Notes: generated by a model from the sequence alone, not told the origin. Positions 24,518 to 54,624 are shown, numbered from the stretch's first letter. The stretch: 64,000 nt of DNA from Candidatus Latescibacterota bacterium (GCA_965221775.1 CBDCSU010000005.1:320001-384000); one strand, 5' to 3'. Made by a program: numbers and translations.

Positions 24518-24518
24518 G

Positions 24519-24962: not shown

Positions 24963-24978
24963 CGCCCAGGGCCTCCCT

Positions 24979-25671
24979 TCAGGCCGCCCGACGGGCGCGG
25001 AGCAATCGGCGGACGCAGTGGCCCGAGAGGCGGGAGGCGGCGTTGTGCAGGCCGATGGCCAGGTTGTCCACCCGGTTCATGAAGACGTTGTAGGCCCACA
25101 GGGCCGGCATGGCCACGAAGAGGCCGATGACGGTGGTCACCAGCGCCTCCGAGATGCCGGCGGAGACCGCCGCCAGTCCGCCGCCCCCGCCCGAGGCGAT
25201 CCCCCTGAAGGCCGCGATCAGTCCCGTCACCGTTCCGAAGAGCCCGAGGAACGGTGCCACCCCCACGATCGTGGCCATGCCGGGCAGGCGCACCCGCAGG
25301 TTGGCCACGGCCACGTCCAGTCCGCGGCCCACCTCGACCTCCACGCCTTCCGTCACCAGCTGGTCGGACTCCTCTTCACCCCTGAGCATGACATACTCCT
25401 TCAGGGCGCCCTCCAGCACCGTGGCCAGCGGGTTGTGACCCGCCTCCCCGGCCTGTTGCACCCGGCTGCGCAGCTCGTCGACATCGACACTGCTGTCGAT
25501 GACGGCCTCGAAGTCCGCCGCCAGCGCCTCCGACCTCTCGCGCGCCCAGCGCAGGGCCAGGGCGCGGTCGATCATCACGGCATAGGAGTAGATGGAGAGC
25601 AGGGCCAGCACGATGACCACCGTCTTGCCGGTGAAGGCCATTGCGTTCCAGAGCTCGCTCACAAGTTCCAT
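24979..25671 (-). CDS. exbB: MotA/TolQ/ExbB proton-channel protein
   Basis: APFLGLFGTVTGLI, GISEALVTTVIGLFVAMPA. Confidence 0.9.
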   Translation of the reverse strand: MELVSELWNAMAFTGKTVVIVLALLSIYSYAVMIDRALALRWARERSEALAADFEAVIDSSVDVDELRSRVQQAGEAGHNPLATVLEGALKEYVMLRGEEESDQLVTEGVEVEVGRGLDVAVANLRVRLPGMATIVGVAPFLGLFGTVTGLIAAFRGIASGGGGGLAAVSAGISEALVTTVIGLFVAMPALWAYNVFMNRVDNLAIGLHNAASRLSGHCVRRLLRARRAA

Positions 25672-25690
25672 GGGACCAGACCTCCCTTTT

Positions 25691-26545: not shown

Positions 26546-27471
26546 CGCCCCTCCCCTTCGTAGTACACCCAGAACCGGCTCGAGCGGAAGACGAGGGCGG
26601 TAAAGGCCATGATGATGACGAAGAGGATCCACGACAGGGCGCTCGCATAGCCGATCTCGAAGTCGCCGAAGGCCTTGTTGTACAGGTACAGCACGTAGAA
26701 CAGGGTCGCCTTGTTGGGCCCCCCCTCGGTCATGAGGAAGGCCTGCGTGAAGACCTGGAAGGAGCCGATGATGCCCATGACGAGGTTGAAGAACAGGGCC
26801 GGCGAGATCTGCGGCACGGTGACGAAGGCGAACTTCCGCCAGCTGCCGGCCCCGTCCAGCTCGGCGGCTTCGTACAGGGACTCCGGGACGTTCTGCAGGG
26901 CCGCGAGGAAGATCAGCATCGAGGCGCCGATGCCCCACAGGCTCATGAGGATGAGGGCGGGCTTGGCCCACAGGTCGCTGAAGATCCACTTGGGAAGGGG
27001 CCACCCGGCCGCTTGCTCCAGGCCCAGGGCCGCGAGCAGGTGCCAGGCCCGCAGGAGGACCGAGTTGAGCAGCCCGTACTCCGGGTTGAAGACCCAGAGC
27101 CACATCATGATCGTCGCCACCCCCCCCACCAGGGCCGGCATGTAGAAGATGGTGCGGAACAGGGCGATGCCGCGCAGGGGCTGGTTCAGGAGGAGGGCCA
27201 GAAGGAGGGCCACGGCCAGACCCATGGGTACGCTGATGAAGCTGTAGAAGGCGGTGTTCCACAGGGCGACGGCCACGTCGGGATCGGCGGCGGCCCGGGC
27301 GTAGTTGCCCAGTCCCACCCAGGCGATCGTCTCCGTGCTGATCCCGTCCCAGCGGATGAAGGCCAGCAGGAAGGAGACGACCATGGGGCCCAGGGCCAGG
27401 CCGAAGAAGCCGATGATCCAGGGCATCGCAAAGAGGTAGCCCGTCATGCTCTCGCGGGTCCGCAGGTTCAT
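26542..27471 (-). CDS. Carbohydrate ABC transporter permease (MalF-like)
   Basis: LYEAAELDGA; GSFQVF; GYASAL. Confidence 0.9.
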   Translation of the reverse strand: MNLRTRESMTGYLFAMPWIIGFFGLALGPMVVSFLLAFIRWDGISTETIAWVGLGNYARAAADPDVAVALWNTAFYSFISVPMGLAVALLLALLLNQPLRGIALFRTIFYMPALVGGVATIMMWLWVFNPEYGLLNSVLLRAWHLLAALGLEQAAGWPLPKWIFSDLWAKPALILMSLWGIGASMLIFLAALQNVPESLYEAAELDGAGSWRKFAFVTVPQISPALFFNLVMGIIGSFQVFTQAFLMTEGGPNKATLFYVLYLYNKAFGDFEIGYASALSWILFVIIMAFTALVFRSSRFWVYYEGEGR

Positions 27472-31854: not shown

Positions 31855-31861
31855 GACAGCG

Positions 31862-32701
31862 TCAGGGACTGCTTCGGAGAAGGCGGGCCCCGATGGAGGC
31901 GGCACGGGCCTGGGGCCACGCATGGAAACGGTTGGCGGAGCGCAGACGCTGGGCCCCGTTGTGGTGGAAGTACCCGCCGCGATAGACGCGTTGTTCACCG
32001 GCGGACGGGCCGGGCGGATCGGCGCCCGGAGCCTGGCCGTAGTAGTCTGCGGCGTACCAGTCCGCTACCCACTCATTCACGTTGCCGTGCATGTCGTGGA
32101 GCCCCCACGGATTGGGACTTCGGGTAGCCACGGCCTGGGCGTGGCGCCTTCCCGCGTCCCAGGTGTTGCCCGTGTGCCAGGCGTAGTCACCGAGGATCGA
32201 AGGGTCGTCGCCGAAGGACCAGCGCGTCGTGGTCCCGCCCCGACAGGCGTACTCCCACTCCGCCTCGGTAGGGAGACGGTAGAGATCGGCACCGGCCAGG
32301 GCGTTCAGCCGTTCCACGAATCCCTGCACCTCGTCCCAGGAGACATTCACCGCCGGGTATTCCGGCCCCTCCTCCACGAAGTCCAGACCCGCCCAGGGGC
32401 GGCTGCCCATGACCGCCTCCCACTGGGCCTGGGTGATCTCCGTGCGCCCCAGATGGAAGGGCCGGGTGATCCTCACCTCCCTGAGGGGGCTCTCGTCGGC
32501 GTCCCTCCCCGGCTCGGTAACCGGCGAGCCCCTGAGAAAAACGCCCGAGTCGATCCGCACGAATTCCATCTCCAGGCCCCCGGGCAGCTCCGCCACCAGG
32601 GCGGGGCGGCTGCCCCCGCCCGCTGAATCCTCCTCCTGCGCACACCCCAGGCCGAGGGCTCCCGTGGCCAGCACGGCCATCTGCCTTGCCACCGAGGGCA
32701 T
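31862..32701 (-). CDS. FGE-sulfatase (SUMF1) fold lipoprotein
   Basis: LGLGC lipobox; TEITQAQW, RLPTEAEWEYACRGG, NPWGLHDMHGNVNEW; lacks the catalytic Cys pair. Confidence 0.85.
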   Translation of the reverse strand: MPSVARQMAVLATGALGLGCAQEEDSAGGGSRPALVAELPGGLEMEFVRIDSGVFLRGSPVTEPGRDADESPLREVRITRPFHLGRTEITQAQWEAVMGSRPWAGLDFVEEGPEYPAVNVSWDEVQGFVERLNALAGADLYRLPTEAEWEYACRGGTTTRWSFGDDPSILGDYAWHTGNTWDAGRRHAQAVATRSPNPWGLHDMHGNVNEWVADWYAADYYGQAPGADPPGPSAGEQRVYRGGYFHHNGAQRLRSANRFHAWPQARAASIGARLLRSSP

Positions 32702-32704
32702 GGC

Positions 32705-33952
32705 TCAGAAGGCGGTCTCGGCGCGTGTGTCCATGAACTGGAGGGTGCAGTCCACGGTGACCCGCGCCGACAGCCCCTGCAGGACCTGCGAAACCAGACC
32801 CGAAGCCGGCCGGCCGCCGGGCGGGCCCGTTCCGGCCGTGTCCGCCGCAGCTCCCTCTCCCCTCATGGGGCCGCCGGAGGGGCGGAAGCGCCAGGCGCGC
32901 ATCCGGGCCGCCATGCACCCACCCACCGCCTCGCTGACCACCGTCGAGGAAATCACCTCCGCCTCGGCGACCGTGCCGGGAGGCAGGATCACGAATCTGA
33001 CCGATACCTCCCCTTCCGAGGCCCTCCCGGCAAGGGACTCGCGGGCAAAGCACTCGTTGAGCTCGTCCAGGCGAGACTTGATGTGGGCCTCGACGGCCGT
33101 CACGTCCCGGGTGATGTCACCCGTCACGTTGCCGACCACTCGAGTGCCGGGACTCAACTCCGCGCGCGACACCTCCCTGGAGACGGACTGACGCTGCTCC
33201 TGGTACTCCGCCACCTCGATCCGACGGTCGAAGTCGAAGCCGATGTCGATCGTCTCCAGCGGTTTGCCGAAGGTGTTGAACTTGAGGACGAAGTCCCTCA
33301 GGTTGAGACGGACGCCCTCGACGTCGGAGTCGAGTGGATCGAAGACGATGAACCCCCCGTACTCCTCGCCCCGGAAGATCCGCTCGCCCACGCCGTAGTT
33401 GTTGGTCCGAACCAGCCCCATGCGCATGTTGAAACGGTAGTACTCGTTGCCGCTGGGTCCCCGGAGACTCCGGTAGTAGGACTCGAAGTTTCTCGTCGAC
33501 GAACCGGCCAGGACCCCGTAGGGCTCCAGGAGCTCTCCCGGCCGGTCGGTGGTCAGGAACGACCGCAGCGGCTGCAGCTCGACCTTGGCGAAGGAGTAGT
33601 TGTGCACGGTGACCCGGAAGACGGTGAAGCGGTTGCGCACGTAGCCGACGGCCGGGTCGATGTAGTCTCCGTAGGTGTACGGATTCGTCGAGTACTCTCC
33701 CTCGCTGGACTCGGCCGGGAAGAGGTCGTTCAACTCCTGGTCGGTCATGTGCTCCACGTCGATCCGCAGGCCCTCCAGCCCGAAGGAGACCGTGCCCCCC
33801 TCTCCGACGGAGAAGCTGTCTCCCTGCTCCCCGCGCGGGGAGAGGGAGGAGGTCCGCTGGTAGATCGGCGGGTAGATGACGCTGCAACCGAGAAGCGCGG
33901 GGATGAGGAGGGCCAGCAGTGGCGCCGGGAGGCCTCGCCAGAGGTTTCTCAT
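32705..33952 (-). CDS. Lipoprotein with a C-terminal AgmX/PglI-type TonB-C-like domain
   Basis: ALLGC lipobox; LNECF...GEVSVRFVILPPGTV...SSTV...VGGCM...WRF. Confidence 0.7.
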   Translation of the reverse strand: MRNLWRGLPAPLLALLIPALLGCSVIYPPIYQRTSSLSPRGEQGDSFSVGEGGTVSFGLEGLRIDVEHMTDQELNDLFPAESSEGEYSTNPYTYGDYIDPAVGYVRNRFTVFRVTVHNYSFAKVELQPLRSFLTTDRPGELLEPYGVLAGSSTRNFESYYRSLRGPSGNEYYRFNMRMGLVRTNNYGVGERIFRGEEYGGFIVFDPLDSDVEGVRLNLRDFVLKFNTFGKPLETIDIGFDFDRRIEVAEYQEQRQSVSREVSRAELSPGTRVVGNVTGDITRDVTAVEAHIKSRLDELNECFARESLAGRASEGEVSVRFVILPPGTVAEAEVISSTVVSEAVGGCMAARMRAWRFRPSGGPMRGEGAAADTAGTGPPGGRPASGLVSQVLQGLSARVTVDCTLQFMDTRAETAF

Positions 33953-33989
33953 GGTCGTTGAAGCACCCCTCTTCGAGAAGGCCGGGTCA

Positions 33990-35216
33990 TCAGCGGCCGG
34001 CCTGGTTGTAGAAGTCGATCTGCTGCTGGGCGATGGAGCCCTTCTGGGTGAGGGCGAAGACCACGAGGTTCACTCCGAGCTTGAGCTGGGGCTCGTTCTC
34101 CGTCTCCCGTTCCCAGATCGCTCCGTAGCCCTTGTCCGAGTAGACGGCCACCAGCCGGTCACGGAGGTAGATGCCCTCCAGCCAGTAGGAAGGCCGGCGG
34201 GTAGCGGCGTACTGGTTGGAGGCGTTGATCACCTCCCCGCCCAGCGGCGGGCCGCCGTCGAAATCGAAGAAGACGTGGTAGATGGGGTTGTCGTCCCGCA
34301 GCGGCACGAAGCGCGCGTCCCGCCCCAGGGCCTGCTTGAACATCGCCTTCATCGAGGCCTCGGCCGGGCCGTACTCCAGACGCGGAGCGTCGTTGTCCGC
34401 CAGCACGAAGCCGCCGTTGCGCAGGTACTTCCCCAGGTTGGCCGCCTCGTGCTTGGTCAGCTCGAAGGCCGACCGGGTGGTGATGTAGACGAAGGGGGCC
34501 TTGAAGAGGGCCTGGGAGTCGAGGTACATCTGCTCGTCCACCTTGGCCTCGATCCGGGTCCAGTTGTTGATCCAGCGGGCCAGCTGGAGCAGCGCCCGGG
34601 GCCGGGACGGCTCGAGGATCGTCCCCCAGGCGCGGGCCAGGTAGACGAAGCCGGTGACGTTGGTCTTGTCCGTGGGATCCTGGATCACCATTCCCTTGTA
34701 CCGGCCGGTGTTGATGGCCGACAGGTCCAGGAACTCCGCCTGCATGTCGATCCGTCTCTCGGGCTCCTTCATGCTGGCGATGCTGACCGCCTCGAAGCGG
34801 GGCATGGCCACCACGGCGTCGCCCAGGCCGGTGCCCGCGGCAACGGTGAACTCCGCGCTTCCCCCGGTCCGGCTCCACATGCGCGTGCCCACGGGCATGC
34901 CCGCCCTCGCCATGCGCCGTCCGCTCACCGTGGTGGTGGTGCGGTCGCCGCTCGAGCGGACCACGGGGGTGCCTTCGGGGACGGCCTCCTTCCGGAAGGC
35001 GAACTCGCGGGTCAGCTGCGGCTCGGGAAGGAAGAAGGGGGTCTTCTCCTCGTCCCACTCGATGCGGGCCACCACCTCCTCCTCTTCCTCCTCCCGCGGC
35101 ACCAGGTAGAGGAAGAGCACCAGGGCGTGAAGCGCCGCCGAGGCCGCCAGGCCGGCATGGAAGAGGCGGCGATGGCGGGACAGGACCCGCAGGGACCCGC
35201 TCTGTCGAGGACTCAC
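33990..35216 (-). CDS. DUF4159-domain protein with N-terminal TM anchor
   Basis: SAALHAL TM (TonB-like SxxxH), poly-Glu, PFVYIT, LGKYLRNGGFVLAD, PIYHVFFDF, KLGVNLVVFALT. Confidence 0.75.
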   Translation of the reverse strand: MSPRQSGSLRVLSRHRRLFHAGLAASAALHALVLFLYLVPREEEEEEVVARIEWDEEKTPFFLPEPQLTREFAFRKEAVPEGTPVVRSSGDRTTTTVSGRRMARAGMPVGTRMWSRTGGSAEFTVAAGTGLGDAVVAMPRFEAVSIASMKEPERRIDMQAEFLDLSAINTGRYKGMVIQDPTDKTNVTGFVYLARAWGTILEPSRPRALLQLARWINNWTRIEAKVDEQMYLDSQALFKAPFVYITTRSAFELTKHEAANLGKYLRNGGFVLADNDAPRLEYGPAEASMKAMFKQALGRDARFVPLRDDNPIYHVFFDFDGGPPLGGEVINASNQYAATRRPSYWLEGIYLRDRLVAVYSDKGYGAIWERETENEPQLKLGVNLVVFALTQKGSIAQQQIDFYNQAGR

Positions 35217-38200
35217 AGGTGCTTCCTCTCGATGGTGTGGCGCCGCCGTTCGCAGAACTCCATCATCCGCGGCGTCACGCGGTCATTGCCCTGCTCTCCC
35301 TGGGTGATGACGTCGCTGAAGGCATCCACGGCCTTCTGCCATTCCCCGAGCTGCTGAAAGCACACCCCCACGTTCATCTTGGCCGCCAGGCCGCTCGAGG
35401 TCATCGGGTACTGCCGCCACACGGCTTCGAGGGGGCCGATGACCTGGCGGACCAGGTCGCGGTCGTCTTCCGCGAGGGCCCGGTTGAAGGCCTCCATGGC
35501 GCCGTTGTACTCCCGGAAGGCGACCGCCTCCTGCACCTCCTGCAGCACCCCTTCGGCGGCGCGGGCGGCCTCGGATTCCGGGAAGTCGGCCCGGAGCCCC
35601 TGGAACAACTCGTAGGCCCGGCCGTAGTCGCCGGCGTTGTAGCTCATCTCGGCCAAGGTGTACCTGGCCGTGGCGAGGTGGCGCCCCGCCGGGTAGCGGG
35701 TCAGGTACTCCTCCATGGCCTGCCGCACCGCGGCCCGGTGCTCTGCCGAAGGTTCCGCCGGCGCCTCGTTGAGCAGACACCAGGCGATGTTGTAGAGCGC
35801 CTCCTCGGCCAGCCCGGTCTCCGGGAAGCGCCGGATCACCTGGCGGTAGGTCTGCCGCGCTTCCCCGTAGGCCCCCGAGTTGTAGCGGCTCTCGGCCAGG
35901 CGGAAGAGGGCATCGGCGGCCACATCCAGATCCGGGTACTGGTCGACGACGCCCGCGAAGTAGGGGATGGCCCTGCTGAAGCGGGCCTCGTTGAAGTGCG
36001 CATAGCCGAGGTAGTACCGGGCATACCCGGCATTCGGATGTCCGGGGTCCTCGGCCAGCATCCGGATGAAGCTGGCCGCGGCCAGGTCGGCACGGTCGGT
36101 CTGGAGCGCTGCCAGACCCCGCAGGAACAGGAGGTCGGCGGCGTAGAAGCCCCCCGGGAAGGCGCGCAGACCCGCGTCGGCCCGGTCGAAGGCGCGCTCG
36201 AACTCCTCGATCCGCACCGCCGACTCGGCCTGCAGGAACCAGGCCTTCTCGCGCAGGTGGTACGGCCGCTCTTCCGGGAGGGGCCCCTCCTTCAGATCCA
36301 GGCCGATGATCTCCTCGCAGGCGGCGGAGGCCTCGGCGTAGCGGCCCTGACGGTTGGCGATCTCCGCCTCCGCCAGCAGGTGCTCCGCGCGCTCCAGGGG
36401 ACCGGCCGCCGCGAGCGCCATCCGCCGGTAGATCTCCTGGGCCCGGTCGTACTCTCCGAGGTTGGCCCAGGCCGCCGCCAGGAGGCGCCGGGCCGCGGAG
36501 GACAGCTCCGGGTCGGTCCACTCCCGGTTCAGATCCTCCAGGGCCTCGGAGTACCGCTCCATGCGGAACAACAGCGAACCGCGGCTGTACGCAGCCCGCT
36601 CCCGCAGGTCGGGATCGCCCAGGCCGATGACCGCGGCGAAGTGCGCCAGGGCGGTTTCCTGCTCTCCCAGCTGCATTGAGGCGGAGGCGAGCAGGTAGTG
36701 GAGAGCCTGACTCTCGGGCCGGTCCTTCGCCTCCAGGCCTTGCTGCAGCACCGCCACCGCCTGGCGGTGCTCTCCCTCCTGCACCAGGAGCTGCCCGGCC
36801 TCCAGGCGCGACCGGGCGAAGAGCTCCGCTTCCCTCCGCACGGCCAGCAGCTCCGCCAGGGCCCGCTCCTGGTTCCCCGCGTCCCTCTCGACGATCCCCA
36901 ACTCGAAGCGGGCCACATCCTCTTCGGGCTTGTCCTCCAGCTCGGCGATCACCGTGCGGTAGGTCTCCGCCGCCAGGGCGTGGTCGCCGCGGCCATGGTG
37001 GATCCGGGCGATCTGGAAGAGGGCGCTCTGGCGGTACCCTTCCGCGTTGGGGGCCTCGGCCACGCTTCCCAGGAAGACCAGGGCTTCGCCCACCTTGTCC
37101 TGCTGGTCCTGCAGCTGAATGGCCAATCCCAGGTTGAACCGCAACTCCACGTCGTAGGGGGATCCCGGGTACGCCGCCAGGGTGGCGCGCAACTCGCTCT
37201 CGGCGCGGCGATAGTAGTCCAGGCGCTCCTCTTCGGGTTGCCTGTCCGCCACGCGGAACCAGGCCCGGGCGACCTGCAGGGCCACGCCCTCGACGGCGAG
37301 GCCGGCCCGCGCGGCGGCGGCCTCGTAGTTCGTCCGGTAGACCTCGTACTCACGCACCGCCTCCTCGTAGTGCCCGGTCTCGAAGTAGCGGTTGGCCAGC
37401 AGGAGCTGCATGCGCGCCTTCTGCACGACATCGCCCGTCGCCTCGATGGCCTGGTGGTAGACGGCGACGACGGCGGCGAAGTCCCCCCGCCGGTAGTGCA
37501 TGTCCGCCTGGCGCAGGTACGCCTCTTCGGCGAGCCGCTGCTCCTCGGCAAAGCGTGAGGCCACCAGCTGGAAGGACTCCTCGGCCTGGGCGTACTGCCC
37601 CGTCTTCTCGTGGCACTCGCCGATGCGGATGAGGGCCTTGGCCGCCAGGTCGAGAGCGGTCTCGTCGACGAGGCCGGCGATCTTCTGCCGCTTCATCCGC
37701 AGGATCTCGCGTTCGGACATCTCCTCGATGCGCTGGGAATCGACCAGCCGCTGGTAGAAGGGGATGGCCTCCCGGTAGTTCTCCAGGGCGAAGTGGCCCT
37801 CGCCGATCTGGAACAGGGCCCGGCTGCCGCGGTAGCCGCCGGGAAAGCGCTCAACGAGGCGCTCGAAGGCGGCTATGCTGTTGGCATAGTCCTCCATGTC
37901 ATAGTGGGCCCACCCGACATCGTACATCGCCTGTTCGACATAGGCGCTCGACGGATAGCGCTCGATGAGGAGGCCCGCCCCCTCGATGGTGCGCTCGTAA
38001 TCCTGAATGGCGTACCAGCAGGCCACGGCGCGGCTGCGGGCCAGGGCCTTCAGCGCCGGGACGGTGGACAGCTCCTCGGTCTCCACGAAGGCGTCGGCCG
38101 CCTCTCCGAAGAGGGACCTGGCGCGGTCCTGGTACCGGGAACGCCTTGCCGGGTCGCGGCTCCTGGCGGCGCTGGCGAGGGCCTCCTCGGCGGACTTGAA

Positions 38201-38527
38201 GTGCGCATTCCCGACCTGGTACCGGGCCACCTCCTGCAGCGGCGCCGTGATCTGGCCGACGGTCACCTCCACGTCCCGCATCTGCAGGAAACGGCTCTGG
38301 CTCCGGATGATGCGCCGATAGCCCTCGATCGCCTGGTCGTAGGCTCCCGAGGCGTAGAACTTCTGCGCGTCGGCGAAGGTCGCCTGCATCTCCGGGGCCG
38401 TGGGCACCGACCGGGTGACGGCGATCATCGCCGTCAGGCCTACCAGGGTGATCAACGCGACCATGGTCCGTTCCCTCCGACCGGGCGCGGTCGGTACGCG
38501 CCCCGCCTCGGCTTCCTCCGTCGACAC
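35213..38527 (-). CDS. Large TPR-repeat protein (YbgF/BamD-like repeats), N-terminally anchored
   Basis: Many TPR units (AMYDVGWAHY, ALFQIGEGHF, ARYYLGYAHF, ALFRLAESRY, ALYNIAW). Confidence 0.85.
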   Translation of the reverse strand: MSTEEAEAGRVPTAPGRRERTMVALITLVGLTAMIAVTRSVPTAPEMQATFADAQKFYASGAYDQAIEGYRRIIRSQSRFLQMRDVEVTVGQITAPLQEVARYQVGNAHFKSAEEALASAARSRDPARRSRYQDRARSLFGEAADAFVETEELSTVPALKALARSRAVACWYAIQDYERTIEGAGLLIERYPSSAYVEQAMYDVGWAHYDMEDYANSIAAFERLVERFPGGYRGSRALFQIGEGHFALENYREAIPFYQRLVDSQRIEEMSEREILRMKRQKIAGLVDETALDLAAKALIRIGECHEKTGQYAQAEESFQLVASRFAEEQRLAEEAYLRQADMHYRRGDFAAVVAVYHQAIEATGDVVQKARMQLLLANRYFETGHYEEAVREYEVYRTNYEAAAARAGLAVEGVALQVARAWFRVADRQPEEERLDYYRRAESELRATLAAYPGSPYDVELRFNLGLAIQLQDQQDKVGEALVFLGSVAEAPNAEGYRQSALFQIARIHHGRGDHALAAETYRTVIAELEDKPEEDVARFELGIVERDAGNQERALAELLAVRREAELFARSRLEAGQLLVQEGEHRQAVAVLQQGLEAKDRPESQALHYLLASASMQLGEQETALAHFAAVIGLGDPDLRERAAYSRGSLLFRMERYSEALEDLNREWTDPELSSAARRLLAAAWANLGEYDRAQEIYRRMALAAAGPLERAEHLLAEAEIANRQGRYAEASAACEEIIGLDLKEGPLPEERPYHLREKAWFLQAESAVRIEEFERAFDRADAGLRAFPGGFYAADLLFLRGLAALQTDRADLAAASFIRMLAEDPGHPNAGYARYYLGYAHFNEARFSRAIPYFAGVVDQYPDLDVAADALFRLAESRYNSGAYGEARQTYRQVIRRFPETGLAEEALYNIAWCLLNEAPAEPSAEHRAAVRQAMEEYLTRYPAGRHLATARYTLAEMSYNAGDYGRAYELFQGLRADFPESEAARAAEGVLQEVQEAVAFREYNGAMEAFNRALAEDDRDLVRQVIGPLEAVWRQYPMTSSGLAAKMNVGVCFQQLGEWQKAVDAFSDVITQGEQGNDRVTPRMMEFCERRRHTIERKHL

Positions 38528-38540
38528 TGGAAGGCAGATC

Positions 38541-44062: not shown

Positions 44063-44064
44063 GG

Positions 44065-46893: not shown

Positions 46894-46920
46894 GTCAAGC
46901 CAGACAGGAAGCGAAGCTTC

Positions 46921-48987
46921 TCAGTAAGCCACCCCTACGACGCCGGTGGCGGTTTCGGTCCCGGCGTCGAGCTCCACCTGGACGCGGTAGAGGTAGTTGC
47001 CCGGCGGCACCAGCCGGCCTTCGTCGTCCCTGCCGTCCCAGTATCCGGGGACGATACCCCGTGCCCCGCTGACGAGGCGCAGGTAGACGCCGGCCGCCAG
47101 GGGGGACGGCTTCAGATCGCGCACCAGAGCGCCCCGGAGGTCGAAGATGCGCAGTCCCAGGTCGCGGGGCGTGTCTACCTTGCTGAGAATGAACTCGATG
47201 ACGGTGTCATCGTTGATGTCGTCACCGTTGGGTGTGAACACGGAGGGATTGGCGCGGACGTTCGACAAGGCGTCCTCGGGAGAGGTCGTCGGGACCACCG
47301 CCCAGGAGAAGGGCTCGCCCGTGCTCTCGTCCATACCGAGGCTCTCGGCCACGTTGACGGGGTTGTCCGACCCGGGGCTGAAGAGAAAGACGCGGAACTC
47401 GTGGCTGTTCGCGTGGGAGCGGGCCCGAAAGGGTATCTGCAGTTGGTCGATGTCGCGCACCGGCTCGGAGAAGACGAGCTCAAGCGCATCCTGCGTGGAG
47501 ATCCAGCTCTCCAGGATCCCCTGGAGCTGACCGTCGTCGACCAGTCGGGCCTCGCTGGGGACGGCGACGCGGAGCCGCTCGATCCCCGAGTCTTCGGGGG
47601 AAAAGGCCAGGTCCAGGGTGCACACGAAGAGGGTGTCGGCACCCATGGACACGCGGTTGGGCGAGATCCTGGAATGGGCGCCGGAAACGGCGATCTCCTC
47701 GGTCGTGTAGTCCAGCTCCAGGCTGTGCAATGCCGGCGTGCGCCGCTGGTCCCTGGACTCCAGGGCGACCCGGTATTGGAGCCAGGCTCCCGGCTCCGAG
47801 GCGGGGAACCAGACCTCTCCACTCGACAGAGGGGTGCTCCACCCCCGCTTGGGATCCTCGAAGTCCGACGGGGAATTCCCCGTCCGGAACTGGACGAAGA
47901 GATCCGTGCGCTCGGGGATCTCGGCATCCCAGCGCACGCGGCCGAAATTCTTGGCCTGGTCGGGCGCGCCCAGCGAGAGAGGATCGGAGAGGTATGTGCC
48001 CTCGTCCGTGTACCCGTCTCCGTAGACCTCCACCTCGGCCACCTTGGGAGGGCTCACGGAGTTGATGTCGACGATCACGACTCGCACGTACCGGGTCCAC
48101 ACCGGCGTAAAGCGCACCTCGGTCCAGTCGAACTTCTCGATATCGTGGATGACGCCCACCTCGGTCCAGCGGACCCGGTCGTCGCTGACCTGCACCGAGT
48201 AGCCCCTCAACGAATTCTCCTCCAGCTGGCCGGGATTGCTCCCCCTGGTGATGACGCGGACGCTGCTGACGTTGCGCCTGACCTGCAGATCCACACTGGC
48301 CGAGTAGTTGAGAGCAGAGGTGGGCGGGTCCCAGGAGGTGTTCAGCTTGCCGTCCACGACTTCCACACGGTTGCTCGGCTTGTCGAGGGCCAGGTTCTGG
48401 CCGCGAATCTGACTGAGAACCAGGCTTCCCTGCCGGGCGCCCACGTCGATCCCCGACGGGAACCCGGAGACGATCTCGATCTCCGGGTCGAGCAGATCCT
48501 GGATCCGGGCGCGCTCGACCGCCCCCTGCTGCACGGCCTGCCACGCCGGATCGTCCTCCGGATCGGCCGTCGTCCACTCGAGACCCTGCTGCTCGAAGGA
48601 GGTCCAGTACCACCCCTGCACCACCTGGTTCGTGGTCGTCTCGATCCGGTACTCGTCGGTGACCACCGCGGCGATGAGGCCGTTGCCGGCGCCGGCGCCG
48701 CGGTTGACGACCTTCACGGCGATGTCATTCCCCGCATTCCCGTCCTGCACCTGGACGGCATAGACCTGCATCCGGGTACCGAGAGAGTCCCCGCCGAGGA
48801 GCACGCCGTTGAAGTAGACCTCGTAGCTGTCCACGGCGGCCACGTGGAGCCTGGCCTCGAGAGCGGCGTCGGAAACGAAGTTGGAACGGAAGTAGGTGGT
48901 GCTACGCCACGAACTCTGCTCCCAGGTCTGCGCGGTGACCGCAGCCGTGCAGCAGAGCACGATGAGGGAGGTGAAGCGGATAGACAT
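46921..48987 (-). CDS. Secreted protein with a discoidin/F5-F8-like domain and an FTPNGD + FlgD-Ig C-terminal domain
   Basis: Signal peptide; NLALDKP...YSVQVSDD...TRYVRV...VAEVEVYG; NPSVFTPNGDDIND...WDGRDDEGRLVPPGNYLY. Confidence 0.8.
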   Translation of the reverse strand: MSIRFTSLIVLCCTAAVTAQTWEQSSWRSTTYFRSNFVSDAALEARLHVAAVDSYEVYFNGVLLGGDSLGTRMQVYAVQVQDGNAGNDIAVKVVNRGAGAGNGLIAAVVTDEYRIETTTNQVVQGWYWTSFEQQGLEWTTADPEDDPAWQAVQQGAVERARIQDLLDPEIEIVSGFPSGIDVGARQGSLVLSQIRGQNLALDKPSNRVEVVDGKLNTSWDPPTSALNYSASVDLQVRRNVSSVRVITRGSNPGQLEENSLRGYSVQVSDDRVRWTEVGVIHDIEKFDWTEVRFTPVWTRYVRVVIVDINSVSPPKVAEVEVYGDGYTDEGTYLSDPLSLGAPDQAKNFGRVRWDAEIPERTDLFVQFRTGNSPSDFEDPKRGWSTPLSSGEVWFPASEPGAWLQYRVALESRDQRRTPALHSLELDYTTEEIAVSGAHSRISPNRVSMGADTLFVCTLDLAFSPEDSGIERLRVAVPSEARLVDDGQLQGILESWISTQDALELVFSEPVRDIDQLQIPFRARSHANSHEFRVFLFSPGSDNPVNVAESLGMDESTGEPFSWAVVPTTSPEDALSNVRANPSVFTPNGDDINDDTVIEFILSKVDTPRDLGLRIFDLRGALVRDLKPSPLAAGVYLRLVSGARGIVPGYWDGRDDEGRLVPPGNYLYRVQVELDAGTETATGVVGVAY

Positions 48988-49008
48988 CAGGCGGTTTCCC
49001 TTGCCGAT

Positions 49009-49047
49009 AGAAACAAATGGGTGGCCGGCTTGCACCGGCCACCCATT
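49009..49047 (-). terminator. Intrinsic terminator/attenuator after the first gene of the envelope operon
   Basis: Perfect 13-bp stem AATGGGTGGCCGG/CCGGCCACCCATT (49016-49047), 6-nt loop, then TGTTTCT on the minus strand. Confidence 0.7.
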
Positions 49048-49090
49048 CCGAGTCAGGCTGCTCCCAAACAGGGACGCCCGCTGACCGCTT

Positions 49091-50938
49091 TTACTTGAGC
49101 AGAGTCACGCGCTTGCTCTCGGCAAAACTCCCCGCGACCATCCGCAGGACATAGACCCCGCTGCCAACCTTGACGCCCTGGTAGTCCGTGCCGTCCCAGG
49201 TGACGTGGTAGGAGCCGGAGTCCAGCACTTGATCCACCAGCCTGGCCACTTCCTGGCCGGCCACGTTGTGCACGGTCAGTGTCACCGACTCGTTGATCTC
49301 GGGAACGGCGATGCGGACGGTCGTCTCGGGGTTGAAGGGGTTCGGGAACGCATCACCCAGTGCGAAAGCGCCGGGCGTGGCCCCACCTTCCAACTCCGTG
49401 ACGTCCGTGGTCAGGCCGTCGCCCACCTTCGCCCGTGCGATGTCCATGGGGAAGTGTGCCAGGTACGGACCGGCTCCCACGCCGATGTAGAGACCGTCGG
49501 CCTCGTTGTCGTTGTCCATCAGCATGGCGATGCCGCCGAGTGAGCCCGGGGGCATGTGGATTCCCACGTTGAGCTTGAACAGACCGAAGCCGTCGGGTCC
49601 CATGACCGTGGCCCATTCAGGCGCCTCCCAGCCGCCGATGAGGCTGATACCCCAGCGGGTGGCCAGTATGCTGATCGGAATGTTCGAGGGGATCCCCAGG
49701 GCCTCCCTCTCCTCCCTGGTGTAGAAGTCCAGGTAGAAGTCGCCGTTCTGGTTTTTCCAGACCAGGTTGAGGTCCTTGTCGGTCTTGGTCGGACCCGCTC
49801 CTTCCCGGCCGAGGTAACTGGTCCCGTAGTAGCCCGTGTCGTCGACGTCGAACCCCGCAACTGCCTTGAAGTTCCTCGGGGCGCCTTCGTCGTTGAAGAC
49901 CTGGGGGAAGTAGTCCAGGAAGGAGAGGACCTCCACCAGCTCTCCGGTGGCGCGGTCGAATATCTGCACCGCCGGACCCGGCGAACCGTAGGGCTCCACG
50001 TGGTCGGCGACGGTGGCGTAGAGCATGCCGTCGTCGGCCACCCAGGGATGGTGGCGGGCGTTGGCCACCATGGTGGTGATGCCGCGGACCTCCATGGCGA
50101 TGTAGCCGCCGTCGGCGTTCTCCCAGCTCTCGTCCAGCAGCGCCGTGCCCGCCTCGCGATCGATGATCGCCCGGTACAGGCCGCCCGGCGGGTTCTGGAA
50201 GCGGATGACGTAGGCCACGCCATCTTCCGACGGGTCCATCTGCAGATAGCCGACATCCTTCCAGTCATTCCCGGTCTCGCCCGGGACCGCGTTGACCCAC
50301 GGGATGGCGAAGGTCTCGAAGGCCTCGGGGTTGGCGAGCAGGTCGGTGCCCATCTCGCTCACCCTGATGTTCCAGACGCCCTCGATCTGCTGGGGGAACC
50401 AGATCTCCGGAGGACTCGCCTGGTCGTTGACCACCGAGTTCTGCCAAGGGGCCATGGTACCGCCCGCGTAGGTGGGCTTGGAGTCGACGTCGATGGCGAA
50501 CAGGTAGGTCCTGTAGGTGCCGGAGCCGACGGTCGCTCCCGTGTAATCCGTGCCGTCCCAGGTGATGGTGTTCGAGCCCGCGTCGAACCGGTCTCCGGCA
50601 CTGATGTAGACGAGGGTATCCAGACCGGCGGCGCGGATCAGGCTCTGTTCGATGCCTCCCACCCCGAAAGGCTCTCCGCCGTACTGGGGATTGGCATCGA
50701 GGGTGTACACGGCAAGCCAGACCATGGCCGAGGGAACGCCTTCGATGGTGAAGGGGATCTCGACCGCGGAACCGTCAAAGGTGTGGTTCACGTCCTGCGT
50801 CGAGAGCTTCAGCACCGTCGGCGCGCCGCCCTTCCAGTGGACGTCAAAGCCCTGCCAGTCGGGGTTGGACTGGCCGAAGTCGTTTGCCGCGGCCGTCCCG
50901 AGGAGTCCGGAACACAACAGCAGGATCGCCTTCTTCAT
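49091..50938 (-). CDS. Secreted protein with N- and C-terminal FlgD-Ig domains (T9SS type A-like CTD)
   Basis: AAGGAG RBS, MKKAILLL signal; TITWDGTDYTG and C-terminal AFPNPFNPET...VTWDGTDYQG...SGVY...KRVTLLK. Confidence 0.85.
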   Translation of the reverse strand: MKKAILLLCSGLLGTAAANDFGQSNPDWQGFDVHWKGGAPTVLKLSTQDVNHTFDGSAVEIPFTIEGVPSAMVWLAVYTLDANPQYGGEPFGVGGIEQSLIRAAGLDTLVYISAGDRFDAGSNTITWDGTDYTGATVGSGTYRTYLFAIDVDSKPTYAGGTMAPWQNSVVNDQASPPEIWFPQQIEGVWNIRVSEMGTDLLANPEAFETFAIPWVNAVPGETGNDWKDVGYLQMDPSEDGVAYVIRFQNPPGGLYRAIIDREAGTALLDESWENADGGYIAMEVRGITTMVANARHHPWVADDGMLYATVADHVEPYGSPGPAVQIFDRATGELVEVLSFLDYFPQVFNDEGAPRNFKAVAGFDVDDTGYYGTSYLGREGAGPTKTDKDLNLVWKNQNGDFYLDFYTREEREALGIPSNIPISILATRWGISLIGGWEAPEWATVMGPDGFGLFKLNVGIHMPPGSLGGIAMLMDNDNEADGLYIGVGAGPYLAHFPMDIARAKVGDGLTTDVTELEGGATPGAFALGDAFPNPFNPETTVRIAVPEINESVTLTVHNVAGQEVARLVDQVLDSGSYHVTWDGTDYQGVKVGSGVYVLRMVAGSFAESKRVTLLK

Positions 50939-50987
50939 GGGATACTCCTTTTCTCCGCCCCGGACTCCCGTCTGGCCCGGTGTGGCG

Positions 50988-51072
50988 TGAGTTCGTGGCC
51001 TGCCTCGTCCTGCCGGGTCTCGGCAGGGCCCAAGAGGCCACAATGATCGGCAACTCAACCCCTTTGGGGGTT
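50988..51072 (-). promoter_or_regulatory. Structured 5' leader upstream of the envelope operon
   Basis: Nested complementary pairs TGAGTT/AACTCA, GTGGCCT/AGGCCAC and CCTGCCG/CGGCAGG, plus hairpin AACCCC-TTTG-GGGGTT. Confidence 0.5.
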
Positions 51073-51094
51073 CGTCCATTCGTTCACTAGAAGA

Positions 51095-51123
51095 CTGTTA
51101 CTGCTCTTTCGGATGGAAGTCAA
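51095..51123 (-). promoter_or_regulatory. Putative sigma70 promoter of the envelope operon
   Basis: TTGACT-17 nt-TAACAG in a locally AT-rich stretch; the -10 match is weak. Confidence 0.35.
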
Positions 51124-51195
51124 GGAAAAAGCACGGCCCCCCACGCCCCTTCACCCCGGGGAGAGAGGAGCTATTGGTTGCCACTTACGGACCGC

Positions 51196-51672
51196 TTATG
51201 GGCCGCTCTGGGCCTCCTCCTCGCCGGCCTTGATCCTCACGGGGTCGGACCCGACCGAGATGAACCGTGTCCGCGGGTTGAGGGTGAGCTTGTCGTACGG
51301 CCCGTAGGGCCGCCAGCGCTTGGCCCCCGGAGTCGTCATCGTCTGGGGCTCGGCGTCGGGCCGTTCCGCGCCGATCATCCGAAGGGCCTCGTCCTCGTCG
51401 AAGGGGTCCATCTCTTCGAACCTGTAGCTGACATAGCTCGCCTCCCCCTCCTTAATTACCACGAAGACCCGGACACCCGTGCCAAGCACATCCTGCCACA
51501 GCAGATGCCCGAACCTCCCCTCCGAGGCCTGGACCCTCTGCCAGGGGTCTCCCCAGCGCTCGATGAGATCGGCCTCGCTCCTGCCGAGAACCTCATGAAC
51601 GTCCAGCGGCGGCGGCTCCCGGGAGCAGGACGCCCCGAGAACCAGGACTGAGATGACCAGCGCGGCTCTCAT
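51196..51672 (-). CDS. Small lipoprotein, hypothetical
   Basis: MRAALVISVLVLGAS-C; only this 3' end of ORF 51196-54126 looks real, the rest is antisense to paralogue B. Confidence 0.7.
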   Translation of the reverse strand: MRAALVISVLVLGASCSREPPPLDVHEVLGRSEADLIERWGDPWQRVQASEGRFGHLLWQDVLGTGVRVFVVIKEGEASYVSYRFEEMDPFDEDEALRMIGAERPDAEPQTMTTPGAKRWRPYGPYDKLTLNPRTRFISVGSDPVRIKAGEEEAQSGP

Positions 51673-51739
51673 TCGGATCCGATCCTTGTCTCGTGCTCGG
51701 TTGAAGCCCGGCACGTCCCGGCCCCGGGCAGGGAGCCGC

Positions 51740-51767
51740 AAAATAGAGGGGGGGCTTTCCCGGTCAA
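51740..51767 (-). promoter_or_regulatory. Putative sigma70 promoter for the 51672 lipoprotein
   Basis: TTGACC-16 nt-TATTTT; the spacer contains a C7 run. Confidence 0.5.
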
Positions 51768-51819
51768 GCAGCCGAATCCGACGGCTTGCCGATCGGTGGT
51801 GATTTCCTCTCCGGCAGGG

Positions 51820-54624
51820 ATGGTGCGTATGCGGCCCTGGATCTGGATGCTCCTCCTCTTGCTGACGGGCGGGTTCCGGGCGCTGGCGTCCGAGCCGGTC
51901 CTGGGGCTCCCGCAGGACGTCTCCGGCCGCTCCTTCCTCTACCGGTCGGATCCCTCCTACCTCAACTACGGTTTCGAGGACTACACGCTGCCGGAGTTCA
52001 CCCGGTTCTCGCGGCGCAACTACTACGGCCCCCTGGGCAACTTCCTGATCCAGGGCTACGACGTGTACGAGTGGCGGGAGACCCGGGCCTCGACGGCCAC
52101 GGCCTGGCACAAGTCGCTGCGCACCCTCCCCCGCTTCGGGCGTTTCGAGCGCAACCTGGTGGCGCGGGAGTCGCACGCGCGGTGGGCGGCGAGCCTGATC
52201 TACGGGGAGGAGATCCGCACGCTGTTCACGCCGCTGACCCTGGCCCTGCCGGGCTACGACGGCATCCGCCTCGACAGCCAGGTGGGCAACACGCGGGTGG
52301 CCGTCATCGGACAGCGGTACGTGGGTCACTTCACCGCCGGCCAGTACGGCGAAGGGCCCGTCTGGACCAACTGGGACTTCACCGAGCACATGCGCAGCTC
52401 GGCGATGCTCCTCGGGGCCCACGGCGACGTCGAGCTGGGGGCGCTGACCCTGGGGGCGACGGGGGTGAACTTCCACATCTTCGACGCCGAGCAGGAGAGC
52501 TTCGTGCTGCGCGGCGGGCTGCAGGCCGAGCAGGTGCTGCCGGTGGGCTACCTGGTGCGGCTCTCCGACGATTCGCCGGAGGACCTGCAGGCCGGCGCCG
52601 TGGTCGCGGAGGTGCGTCTGAAGGTCAACGGCGAGGAGCGCCCGGACCTGCGGCCCTTCCTGGCCCGCATCAACGGCCAGAATCCCACCGCGGTGGGATC
52701 CACCAGCCGGCTCACGGGCCAGTTCCGGCGGGTGGCCTACCTGGACCGGGGCACGCGCTTCGCAGACGTGCTCTACCTGCGCGATCACCTGCGGGGGGAG
52801 GACGTGTCGGACAAGGTCAACCTGGAGGAGTTGCTGCGCTGGGTGGAGGCCCTGCCGGACGTGCCCGGGCTGCGGGCCGACGGCCACGAGCAGATCATCG
52901 CCTTCTTCGACGTGAGCCAGGAGCCGTTCATCCGCCAGGTGCAGGTGGAGGCGCTGGTGGGCAACGACTACCGCGTCGAGGTGCTGCCCCTCTACGTCTC
53001 GGCCCCGGCGGTGGAGAACTACGAGTTCCACTACCGCGTGGGCGGCAATTCCCTGGCGCCGGGGCAAGGCTACTTCGTGGAAAAGGAGACGCCGGGGGTG
53101 ACCGCCGCACGCCGCTCCCCGGGCAACGTTCAGGACATGTCGAACCTGGAGTGGGTGCGCCTGGATCTGGGGGAGTGGACGGGCCGGGCCCTGTGGGGTC
53201 TCAACGGGGCCTGGGAGTGGGGCGACGCCGAGGTGCGCTGGGAATACGCCCGCAGCGTGGAGTACCGCGAGTTTCCCGACGGCCGGCCGGGGTACCGCGA
53301 GGACCGGGAACTCAGGGGCATCCGCCGCTGGAACGGGGCGCGCAGCAGCACCGACGCCGGCGCGTACTACGTGAACGGACGGTGGCGCCGGGGCCGGGTG
53401 GAGGTGGGGGGGGAGCTGTTCTCCATCGCCGAGGAGTACGACAGCGGCTTCGTGCAGGACAACGACGACGACGACCGCTATCCCGACAGCGGCCCCGGAC
53501 ACCGCCCCATGAGTGCGGACACGGGCACCCCCTTCGACCCGGACGGGGTGTTCCCGGGCAACGACCGGGACAACGACCGGATTCCGGACACCAACCGCAA
53601 CGGCAACCGGGTGCCCGATTACCTGGAGGCGTTCCTGCTGTACGACGTGGAGCCGCTGGCCTATGCCTATGGACGGGACGCCAACAACAACGGCATCCCC
53701 GACCACCGCGAGGACGACCTGGACTCGGACTACCCCTACGAGGTGGACCAGCGCGGGCACCACGCCTTCGGGACGCTGCATCTGCCCGGCGGGTTTCGCC
53801 TCACGGCGGGCCGGCTGCGGGCGGCGGGGATCGCCAGCGGCGCCCGCAACGAGAGCACCTACGGCGTCGCCACCCTTCGCCGCCACAGTCACCGGTGGGG
53901 CTCGGTCCGGGCCGAGACCCGCCTCCGGCGGCTCCACGACGACATCGTCGACAACTACGTCGTCTTCGACGAGGTGTGGGGCCGCTATCCCAACCGGGAG
54001 CGGACCTATGCCCCCACCACGGTGCTGGATCTGCTTGAGTATCGCGACAGCCTGGACCGGCAGCACTACGTCGAAGCCGACCTCAGCCCCGCCCCCGGAC
54101 TGCGCCTCGGCGGCAACCTGCGCCATGCGCTCAACGAGCAGCGCGAGGCCACCCTGGCCGATGGCAGCGATCAGGCCGCCGACACGATCACCCGGCTGAC
54201 GATGGTGGCCCGGGCCGAGTATGTGTGGGAGCTGTCGGAGCGGTGGCGCGTGATCGCCCAGGCCAAGGCGCTGCGGCTGCGCCGGACTCGGGAGAGCCTG
54301 GCGGTGGACCTGGCCAACGAGTGGACTTTCGTGCCGATCCTGAAGACCTCATGTCACATCACGCCGCGCACCCACCTGTGGCTCGGCACCCAGGGGCTGC
54401 CGGGCCTGCCCCTGCGCAAGGAGGATCTGGCCGACGGCCGCGACAGCTACGAGGAGGTCGTTCGGGTGGTGCAGCTGACGAACTGGTCTCCCTACTTCGG
54501 GTACGAAATCGCCACCAACCTGGGGGTGAAGTGGAGCCGGCGCCAATACGGAGATCCCGCACGGGAGAGGGACGATCTCGACATCACCTCCGCCTTCCTG
54601 CGCGTCCTCCTGGGATTCGAATAG
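51820..54624 (+). CDS. Uncharacterised ~935-aa putative outer-membrane protein, paralogue B (near-identical to A)
   Basis: Its own signal peptide MRPWIWMLLLLL...ALA; mature sequence matches 38541-41351 except for short patches. Confidence 0.85.
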   Translation: MVRMRPWIWMLLLLLTGGFRALASEPVLGLPQDVSGRSFLYRSDPSYLNYGFEDYTLPEFTRFSRRNYYGPLGNFLIQGYDVYEWRETRASTATAWHKSLRTLPRFGRFERNLVARESHARWAASLIYGEEIRTLFTPLTLALPGYDGIRLDSQVGNTRVAVIGQRYVGHFTAGQYGEGPVWTNWDFTEHMRSSAMLLGAHGDVELGALTLGATGVNFHIFDAEQESFVLRGGLQAEQVLPVGYLVRLSDDSPEDLQAGAVVAEVRLKVNGEERPDLRPFLARINGQNPTAVGSTSRLTGQFRRVAYLDRGTRFADVLYLRDHLRGEDVSDKVNLEELLRWVEALPDVPGLRADGHEQIIAFFDVSQEPFIRQVQVEALVGNDYRVEVLPLYVSAPAVENYEFHYRVGGNSLAPGQGYFVEKETPGVTAARRSPGNVQDMSNLEWVRLDLGEWTGRALWGLNGAWEWGDAEVRWEYARSVEYREFPDGRPGYREDRELRGIRRWNGARSSTDAGAYYVNGRWRRGRVEVGGELFSIAEEYDSGFVQDNDDDDRYPDSGPGHRPMSADTGTPFDPDGVFPGNDRDNDRIPDTNRNGNRVPDYLEAFLLYDVEPLAYAYGRDANNNGIPDHREDDLDSDYPYEVDQRGHHAFGTLHLPGGFRLTAGRLRAAGIASGARNESTYGVATLRRHSHRWGSVRAETRLRRLHDDIVDNYVVFDEVWGRYPNRERTYAPTTVLDLLEYRDSLDRQHYVEADLSPAPGLRLGGNLRHALNEQREATLADGSDQAADTITRLTMVARAEYVWELSERWRVIAQAKALRLRRTRESLAVDLANEWTFVPILKTSCHITPRTHLWLGTQGLPGLPLRKEDLADGRDSYEEVVRVVQLTNWSPYFGYEIATNLGVKWSRRQYGDPARERDDLDITSAFLRVLLGFE
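51913..54620 (+). repeat. ~2.7-kb inverted repeat, copy 2 (partner 38548-41252)
   Basis: As for copy 1; a tract of over 200 nt is identical even at synonymous sites. Confidence 0.9.

Follow-up and report, generated by a model that had tools for sequence, protein, structure and literature searches.

The stretch analysed here, hereafter the window, comprises 64,000 nucleotides of a Candidatus Latescibacterota bacterium (GCA_965221775.1, CBDCSU010000005.1:320001-384000), and it carries, between positions 31862 and 54624, a run of envelope genes in which three large outer-membrane (OM) proteins, named G, F and E, are encoded between two secreted proteins with FlgD-like tails (I and H) and a set of membrane-anchored partners (D, C and B). 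We tentatively read this locus as a surface-display or anchoring machine coupled to the T9SS (type IX secretion system), in which a new family of OM barrels would serve proteins with type-B-like tails in the manner of PorP/SprF with type B cargo, upon an envelope scaffold that may be coupled to the proton-motive force (PMF); the function is inferred, and we rate this reading as falling a little short of an even call. Part of its evidence is the linkage between one class of secretion tail and the barrel genes. In the window, whose G+C content is about 70%, real genes were told from chance open reading frames (ORFs) by their third-position G+C (GC3), and the genes of the locus are the following.

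51196-51672, minus strand: K0, a 158-aa lipoprotein (lipobox LGASC, GC3 0.86), heading the run
49091-50938, minus strand: I, a secreted protein that has FlgD_ig in two stretches and ends in a T9SS type A sorting domain
46921-48987, minus strand: H, a secreted discoidin (F5/8 type C) protein with signal peptide and an H-type C-terminal domain
44065-46893, minus strand: G, barrel paralogue at position 1, right after H; start codon uncertain
41348-44062, minus strand: F, barrel paralogue at position 2; 904 aa counted from its ATG (44062)
38541-41351, minus strand: E, barrel paralogue at position 3; 936 aa, modelled with AlphaFold 2 (AF2)
35213-38527, minus strand: D, a 1104-aa tetratricopeptide repeat (TPR) protein with an N-terminal hydrophobic anchor and YbgF/CpoB- and BamD-like TPR units
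33990-35216, minus strand: C, a membrane-anchored DUF4159 protein with an N-terminal hydrophobic helix (PF13709, E 8e-28)
32705-33952, minus strand: B, a lipoprotein (lipobox LLGC) with an AgmX/PglI C-terminal domain
31862-32701, minus strand: A, a lipoprotein (lipobox) of the FGE-sulfatase fold (PF03781, E 3.5e-43)
51820-54624, plus strand: J, a divergent duplicate of E, of the position-3 type by identity and tree

The minus-strand genes, from K0 to A, span 31862-51672, and with refined starts the gaps between them are about 103 nt (I-H), 27 (H-G), 2 (G-F), -4 (F-E), 13 (E-D), -4 (D-C), 37 (C-B) and 3 (B-A); in F the signal peptide lies after M72 of the ORF. A first-pass annotation, made from the sequence by a model, had described a tightly packed minus-strand run with these domains, and our ORF and domain calls confirm it, save that K0 had been missed and that, of the four related OM proteins it reported, three lie in the run while the fourth, J, is transcribed divergently on the plus strand.

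The linkage was followed with two tail profiles, one made from the C-terminal domain of H and the other from that of I; as Jackhmmer, when iterated to convergence, fused both tail classes (111 and 114 matches), the first-round profiles were used. The genome to which the window belongs holds 114 tail-bearing ORFs, 28 of them H-type and 80 type A, with six ambiguous or zero cases left uncounted. All but one of the H-type ORFs (27/28) have a barrel gene no more than 7 kb away, and the exception is on a contig without a barrel; among the type A ORFs only 3/80 lie so close, these three being the I orthologues of three module copies, and the next nearest type A ORF to any barrel is 24 kb away. Eleven of the 28 H-type genes stand directly upstream of a barrel gene on the same strand (<250 bp), and six further ones stand upstream of a barrel in tandem arrays, 1.7-4.8 kb away. 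In related loci (77, from 33 assemblies), a barrel ORF is directly downstream of 32/32 H-type ORFs and of 4/45 type A ORFs, counts in which the order is informative and the proximity is not, as the loci had been selected by barrel match. When the phylum was sampled in 151 genomes, 92/94 of those with barrels and 1/57 of those without had a strong H-tail match, where strong means a best E<=1e-31, a limit chosen once a gap from 1e-17 to 1e-31 had been noticed; these genomes are related rather than independent, and the profile was derived from barrel-bearing ones. The exceptions are G003 and G044, with barrels and no strong tail, and G030, 75% complete, with a tail and no barrels; distant families retain strong H-tail matches, in contrast to sister families within the same class. 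The analogy drawn in the first-pass annotation, with type B cargo encoded beside a dedicated barrel, is thus strongly borne out by gene linkage.

The sole H-type gene without a barrel on its contig (C4:821826-824051) and a second H-like gene (C5:168679-170751) share their last 60 residues identically although on different contigs, and this pair is either a very recent duplicate or an assembly duplicate.

What kind of tail H carries could be approached from its motifs, FTPNGD (FTPNGDDIND in H), WDGRD and VAY in that order, and from its profile scores. All 28 H-type ORFs of the genome end in ..VAY, ..VVY or similar, with the tail reaching the last residue, and this end is conserved (>=90%) among 37 aligned H-type tails. 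Against CHU_C (PF13585), H scores 27.4 bits as a whole protein and 32.5 bits as an isolated tail, with a cut-off of 27, and at E<=0.01 the 37 tails are matched by CHU_C in 35 cases, by FlgD_ig in 36, by TIGR04131 in 30 and by the type A model in 12. Furthermore, the domain of H lies at the extreme C terminus of a protein with a signal peptide, in a genome with SprA, which is the placement expected of a type B domain. To judge from these matches, the H tail is type-B-like, intermediate between FlgD_ig and type B, rather than a certified type B domain. The tail of I is of a different class, since TIGR04183 matches it at 27.2 bits, above the cut-off of 23 (residues 578-658 of a 662-aa ORF), together with FlgD_ig (E 4e-17); its N-terminal part is kept along with the module, with orthologues in the same position at syntenic loci, and an Atlas search with I gave leads limited to NHL/FlgD_ig. 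A complex prediction that paired G (846 aa) and the tail of H (150 aa), both entered as alignments and run without controls, scored 0.00 and weighs neither way.

The first-pass annotation had seen no T9SS core gene at this locus; such genes are present elsewhere in the same genome, as found by profile scores at C5:96-101 kb, C5:943-947 kb and C4:1166-1170 kb: SprA (612 bits, in one 2192-aa frame), two PorU sortases (580 and 542 bits) and a PorV-like gene (148 bits, below the cut-off of 250). Because of these genes, the FlgD-like tags of the locus are best read as T9SS sorting domains. By contrast, the best PorP/SprF match (TIGR03519/Pfam PorP_SprF) in the genome is 20.2 bits, in a gene different from the barrels, and matches above the cut-off number 0/151 in the genomes of the phylum. 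GldK was not found at the equivalog level in the genome (best 100.9 bits), and GldL and GldM gave no match there, in a search that had no positive control and so does not show their absence. It may be, from these profile searches, that the T9SS of this phylum operates without the known motor and ring.

The barrels themselves form a large undescribed OM barrel family. Neither E, F, G nor J has a Pfam or NCBIfam match at E<=0.01, a profile of the family finds no match among PDB sequences (best E 0.82), and the named relatives are all "hypothetical protein" of Latescibacterota; the paralogues E, F and G are 27-30% identical to one another over about 900 aa (E 1e-63 to 1e-90). E was the one paralogue modelled, with AF2 from a 51-row alignment (pLDDT 80.2, pTM 0.78), and by this model it folds confidently as an OM beta-barrel of about 26 strands, as counted on the secondary-structure string without coordinates. 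Foldseek placed SlpA (8e-9) and MtrB (3.5e-8) on top; VIA on the Foldseek matches gave Z 16.2 for 8agd_A (root-mean-square deviation (rmsd) 5.2, 391 aligned), with porins, ushers and TonB-dependent receptors next at Z 10-15, and an independent wide VIA search returned generic OM barrels such as FimD (Z 13.9) and MtrB (Z 11.7). Every structural match is an OM barrel, and no single family stands above the others. Under the rule that periplasmic turns are short, the conserved, unstructured N-terminal segment (about residues 27-76) would be periplasmic, and two insertions (about 225-453 and 539-645, Asp-rich) would be external; no globular N-terminal domain precedes the first strand. The Asp-rich stretch is the most conserved portion of the family and probably binds Ca. 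The OM fold, as modelled for E, and the want of an assignable family, both proposed in the first-pass annotation, are upheld, and of the three results that it had named as speaking against it, namely a soluble fold, a characterised family and a gene set not co-conserved, none was obtained.

In its extent the family comprises 1123 clusters at 50% identity (E<=1e-3), or 774 at E<=1e-10. Records of related loci come from Candidatus Latescibacterota, with some metagenome-assembled genomes labelled otherwise, and DNA nearly identical to the locus occurs in sequencing runs labelled sponge or marine metagenome. The genome itself (5.36 Mb, 6 contigs) has 20 full barrel copies and one cut by a contig end. 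Barrels occur in 94/151 sampled genomes of the phylum, including 63/63 of the window's own family, and in 0/30, 0/19, 0/2 and 0/5 genomes of four other families. In a tree built from 65 barrels (FastTree, local support only), positions 1, 2 and 3 fall apart into three clades (17, 16 and 16 rows; support 100 for each), while the 12 solo barrels of the genome form a fourth clade and J is sister to E. Because each position forms its own clade, G, F and E are old, non-redundant partners, that is, three ancient orthologous groups. J differs in this respect, being a recent copy of E, 86% identical to it in amino acids and 91.6% in DNA over 2727 nt; the divergent J-like arrangement recurs in L019 and in the genus relatives G061 and G111. 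E and J, as an inverted duplication, bracket F, G, H, I and K0, with the same layout in close relatives, and inversion of the segment of about 10 kb between them could occur.

The gene set is co-conserved, which the first-pass annotation had named as a point that would support it, the module recurring across Latescibacterota. The order I, H, three barrels, D, C, B is repeated in the same genome at C6:6.8-26 kb, another copy on C3 is cut by the contig end, and many other assemblies have the module, which at its fullest runs from a small lipoprotein through I, H, three barrels, the TPR protein and DUF4159 to lipoprotein B. D follows the barrels in 25/77 loci; D and C occur together in 23 loci of 21 assemblies, and D, C and B in 18 loci of 18 assemblies, with a one-barrel variant, C-H-barrel-D-B, in L090, L091 and L093. 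K0, for which Pfam gave no match, has homologues in seven other places, upstream of the module (L019 and C3:4357-5247 of the same genome) or immediately upstream of H-like genes (L029, L036, L067, L084 and L086). D is matched by TIGR02795 (181.9 bits) in five YbgF-like stretches, and by PorW/SprE at 52.7 bits, below the cut-off of 250. A search of the literature for DUF4159, the domain of C, gave nothing beyond the Pfam database paper.

Lipoprotein B and the ExbB-ExbD-ExbD trio bear on the question of energy. The C-terminal domain of B matches NF033768 (AgmX/PglI) at 53.6 bits, above the cut-off of 40; Pfam TonB_C (18.8 bits vs 24.6) and TIGR01352 (21.5 vs 27.1) remain below theirs, and the GltG equivalog NF033760 reaches 38.4 bits vs 650 (E 5.6e-10), with a match limited to the C-terminal ~75 residues. 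In the model of B (pLDDT 85.7), a beta-sandwich N-domain (22-255), weakly resembling YjhA/MPT63, is followed by a TonB-CTD-like C-domain (284-360; CTD, C-terminal domain) that superposes on TonB CTDs with rmsd 1.9-3.1 A over 55-60 residues (Foldseek E 0.04-0.1); Foldseek gave no match to the model at E<=0.001. The N-domain of B is always present, and the TonB-like C-domain is found in 11/20 loci with B. Where that domain is missing, B is followed by a conserved gene of about 350 aa and then directly by ExbB-ExbD-ExbD, as seen at C6:26030-28727 in the same genome, where the trio occupies C6:27112-28727 in the sister module, and in L063, L072, L080 and L089. The link with an ExbB/ExbD2 motor claimed in the first-pass annotation has gained support in this way. 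Next to solo barrels at C5:283-290 kb there is another group of genes, for B-like, TPR, ExbB, ExbD and DUF4159 proteins. The ~350-aa protein, which has no family (C6:26030-27085 and the four loci just named), is always encoded between a B-like gene and ExbB, and shows weak similarity to the C-terminal portion of a LarA-fusion protein of the window (939-3275).

Taken as the core copy of a surface-display machine particular to Latescibacterota, the locus might work along the following lines. H and about 27 H-like discoidin proteins encoded elsewhere in the genome would be exported by Sec and then cross the SprA translocon by way of their type-B-like tails, whereupon the barrel encoded directly downstream, in the order that the gene linkage displays, would receive the H-type tail and hold it at the surface. 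The three non-redundant barrels of the core module, observed as three orthologous groups, would form an OM platform, which the membrane-anchored D and C and the lipoprotein B would tie to the inner membrane; upon this platform the PMF could act, either through the TonB-CTD-like domain of B or through the ExbB-ExbD2 stator adjacent in sister loci. I, with its type A tail, and K0 would presumably be further conserved surface or periplasmic parts. We think that the barrels may thus work like PorP/SprF for H-type proteins, by analogy of gene order with the shuttles or anchors that serve type B cargo in Bacteroidota, while they are not members of the PorP/SprF family, because the sequence test failed.

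Several observations weigh against this reading. Concerning the linkage, 11/28 H-type genes have no same-strand barrel downstream of them, and the 77 related loci carry the selection mentioned above. Concerning the tail, H reaches only 19.6-24.9 bits with TIGR04131, below the curated cut-off of 35, and as FlgD_ig matches are as frequent as CHU_C ones and TIGR04131 stays below its cut-off, we only infer that the H tail is a T9SS signal. SprA, found in 146/151 genomes of the phylum including families without barrels, does not discriminate, and one genome with barrels (G015, 96% complete) has no SprA match; moreover, no relation in sequence between the barrels and PorP/SprF is detectable. On the side of energy, B has a lipoprotein signal (LLGC|S) followed by the beta-sandwich and lacks the TonB membrane helix, so that the "TonB-like energy coupler" of the first-pass annotation is not established; the combination of an N-terminal helix coupling to ExbB/ExbD with a Pro-rich spacer is not found in B, and the TonB-like domain is missing in 9/20 loci. 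The trio and TamAB, which it had placed downstream, are indeed on the same strand, though 6.2 kb beyond A and outside the operon, with a GDSL gene, a convergent BNR gene and ABC-transporter genes in between. The FGE lipoprotein A, also listed there in the run, occurs near barrels in only 3/77 loci and does not belong to the conserved module; as GldK/PorK it scores 64.7 bits vs a cut-off of 350, and generic FGE-sulfatase is its best family. On the favourable side, contigs from RNA libraries of several studies cover I and H and, in part, B, C, E, F and G, a weak sign of expression only, since they could include DNA and do not prove transcription: a near-identical contig of 1895 nt (5 differences) covers I, short near-identical ones fall on E, F, G and H, and one of 3093 nt, which is less alike (241 differing letters), joins H and I. 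Finally, the PMF-energised secretion, display or uptake proposed at first is supported in part, as the three roles are not told apart from one another.

A bolder proposal, which we consider rather improbable, would make of the locus a new PMF-driven trans-envelope machine, with a three-barrel platform, a giant TPR protein anchored in the inner membrane, DUF4159, a beta-sandwich lipoprotein and an ExbB-ExbD2 stator, taking over from PorP/SprF and perhaps from the GldLM/PorKN motor-ring, neither of which could be detected in the genome by searches that for GldL and GldM had no positive control, and loading, holding or moving dozens of adhesin-like proteins through a new class of sorting tail. 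Understanding of how type B cargo is handled is still at its beginning and confined to Bacteroidota. The barrel family follows the genetic grammar of PorP/SprF with type B cargo in a different, uncultured phylum and offers specific pairs for study, e.g., the H tail with the downstream barrel; the conserved core points to an energised envelope-spanning complex. The family would also annotate thousands of "hypothetical" OM proteins, and, given the near-identical DNA in sponge or marine metagenome runs, the system could be relevant to the way in which an adhesive surface is formed by these bacteria. In the literature searched we found no paper on type IX secretion in Latescibacteria or on this barrel family, and the passages of PMC4454575 that deal with the outer membrane of Latescibacteria mention porins and TonB import only.

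The same parts could be arranged into an energised uptake system, in which the barrels would be import channels of the SusC/TonB-dependent kind, the H-like proteins surface binders of the SusD/E kind, and ExbB-ExbD2 with B the means of opening the channel; we regard this as unlikely. The adjacency of ExbB-ExbD-ExbD to sister modules and the TonB-CTD fold of B would suit it, as would the carbohydrate-binding F5/8 type C domains of the H-like proteins, the conserved unstructured periplasmic segment at the N terminus of each barrel, the 21 copies that, each with its partner genes, recall SusC/D pairs, and the DUF6785/DUF6784 membrane proteins and DUF4838 that flank several loci. Nevertheless, E, F, G and J show no plug domain and no TonB_dep_Rec match, the genome already possesses about 22 classical TonB-dependent receptors and a canonical ExbB-TonB locus (C6:341-345 kb), B is a lipoprotein without the TonB helix and often without the TonB-like domain, and the partner proteins bear tails of the secretion type instead of lipoprotein signals. 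Three solo loci, with H-like F5/8 type C proteins, SurA-like prolyl isomerases and FG-GAP/UnbV_ASPIC proteins, were examined for glycoside hydrolases or other catabolic genes, and none was found in them.

A structural envelope system, with the barrels as abundant porins or tethers similar to SlpA, with D, C, B and ExbBD as a system similar to Tol-Pal/CpoB that would fasten the OM to the wall and the inner membrane, and with H and I as a surface layer, is quite unlikely. SlpA is indeed the best fold match of E (Foldseek 8e-9; VIA Z 16.2), the strongest family matches of D are YbgF/CpoB and BamD, the most conserved part of the family is the external Asp-rich, probably Ca-binding loop, and no canonical TolB was found in the genome (best 137 bits vs a cut-off of 343, in matches to beta-propeller repeats). 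The SlpA_C (PF21620) matches, seen in four of six distant barrel relatives, stay below the cut-off (17.8-27.3 bits vs 35), however, and none occurs in E, F, G or J, nor has any part an SLH or OmpA-type wall-binding domain. The 21 copies have diverged and each has an H-like partner of its own, which suits specific pairs better than a bulk structural part, and, as whole families of the same class are without the system (f2, 0/30; f3, 0/19), it is not an essential envelope architecture.

To our knowledge, no specific search having been made, there are no motility data for the phylum, which counts against a motor for surface motility or adhesion of the Agl-Glt or SprB/SprF kind, in which the ExbB-ExbD2 stator would move a three-barrel platform with H and I as adhesins. 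Although the parts list runs parallel to Agl-Glt (one TolQ-like, two TolR-like, TPR, OM barrels and an AgmX/PglI domain), the H-like proteins look like adhesins and SprB, a type B cargo, is described in PMC9143113 as binding SprF, this is the most doubtful of the alternatives, as the GltG equivalog stands at 38 bits vs 650, no cytoplasmic Glt-like parts or MglA-type regulators are seen in the locus and the motor genes are unlinked in the window.

The surroundings of the locus deserve a brief account, beginning with the candidate motor and its neighbour.

24125-25671, minus strand: ExbB-ExbD-ExbD, the candidate motor (Pfam MotA_ExbB, ExbD twice)
16699-23137, minus strand: TamB/Omp85, on the same strand as the run

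Within 16699-25671 (minus), the trio is followed by a 273-aa secreted protein without a family and then by TamB and the Omp85/TamA gene, and a stator adjoining a TAM system is unusual. An ORF of 329 aa upstream of ExbB (25659-26648, minus) was rejected as a module gene, being spurious (GC3 0.42); the real gene, at 25691-~26545, is a second ABC permease in another frame (GC3 0.93). In the GDSL-like gene (28858-31998, minus), the coding signal stops near 29,950 and the frame is open to 28858, running antisense to the convergent BNR-repeat gene (28885-29973, plus), which means a genuine overlap or else a hidden frameshift. At 939-3275 (minus), lactate racemase (LarA) is fused to a FlgT_C-like C-terminal domain. 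The DUF6785/DUF6784 membrane-protein family, with a copy in the window at 56674-58626 (minus) and about 28 copies in the genome, borders a number of barrel loci in this genome and in others (L019, L066, L088 and more), and DUF4838 genes adjoin two of its copies.

Compared with known systems, the locus shares with TonB-dependent transport and SusC-SusD the large OM barrels in about 20 copies, each adjoining the gene of a surface binding protein, and the ExbB/ExbD and TonB-CTD-like fold in the neighbourhood; it differs in lacking a plug, a family match and, in the loci examined, linked catabolic genes, and in the T9SS-type tails that its partners carry in place of lipoprotein signals. With SlpA (PF21620) of Deinococcus radiodurans it shares the best structural match, the very large OM barrel and the weak SlpA_C matches of distant relatives, and differs in having no SLH or coiled coil, sub-cut-off SlpA_C scores and TM-scores of 0.23. 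The five YbgF-like TPR stretches of D and the TolQ/TolR-like stator adjoining sister modules resemble Tol-Pal/CpoB, of which TolA, TolB and Pal equivalents were not recognised here and from which the absence of the system in whole sister families sets it apart. The Agl-Glt machine of Myxococcus xanthus likewise combines one TolQ/ExbB, two TolR/ExbD, TPR, several OM barrels and an AgmX/PglI-type domain; the match is, however, limited to the ~80-residue C-terminal domain of B, which here belongs to a lipoprotein and not to an inner-membrane protein, and no cytoplasmic components were found.

A close parallel is with PorP/SprF. In Bacteroidota, according to PMC12618676, type B cargo genes lie directly upstream of the gene of their PorP/SprF shuttle, and PorP is described in PMC9143113 as binding both type B cargo and the TPR-containing PorE. 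Here, too, an OM barrel gene stands directly downstream of a gene with a CHU_C/type-B-like tail, many cognate pairs are found per genome, the genome has the SprA translocon, and a periplasmic partner contains TPR, PorE in the one case and D in the other. The differences are equally plain: the barrels of Latescibacterota match neither TIGR03519 nor Pfam PorP_SprF; they have about 900 aa, about 26 strands and two large external insertions, whereas PorP/SprF proteins are much smaller, the NCBIfam model having 292 positions; the H tail is intermediate between FlgD_ig and type B; and the three-barrel core with DUF4159, lipoprotein B and ExbBD is without a counterpart.

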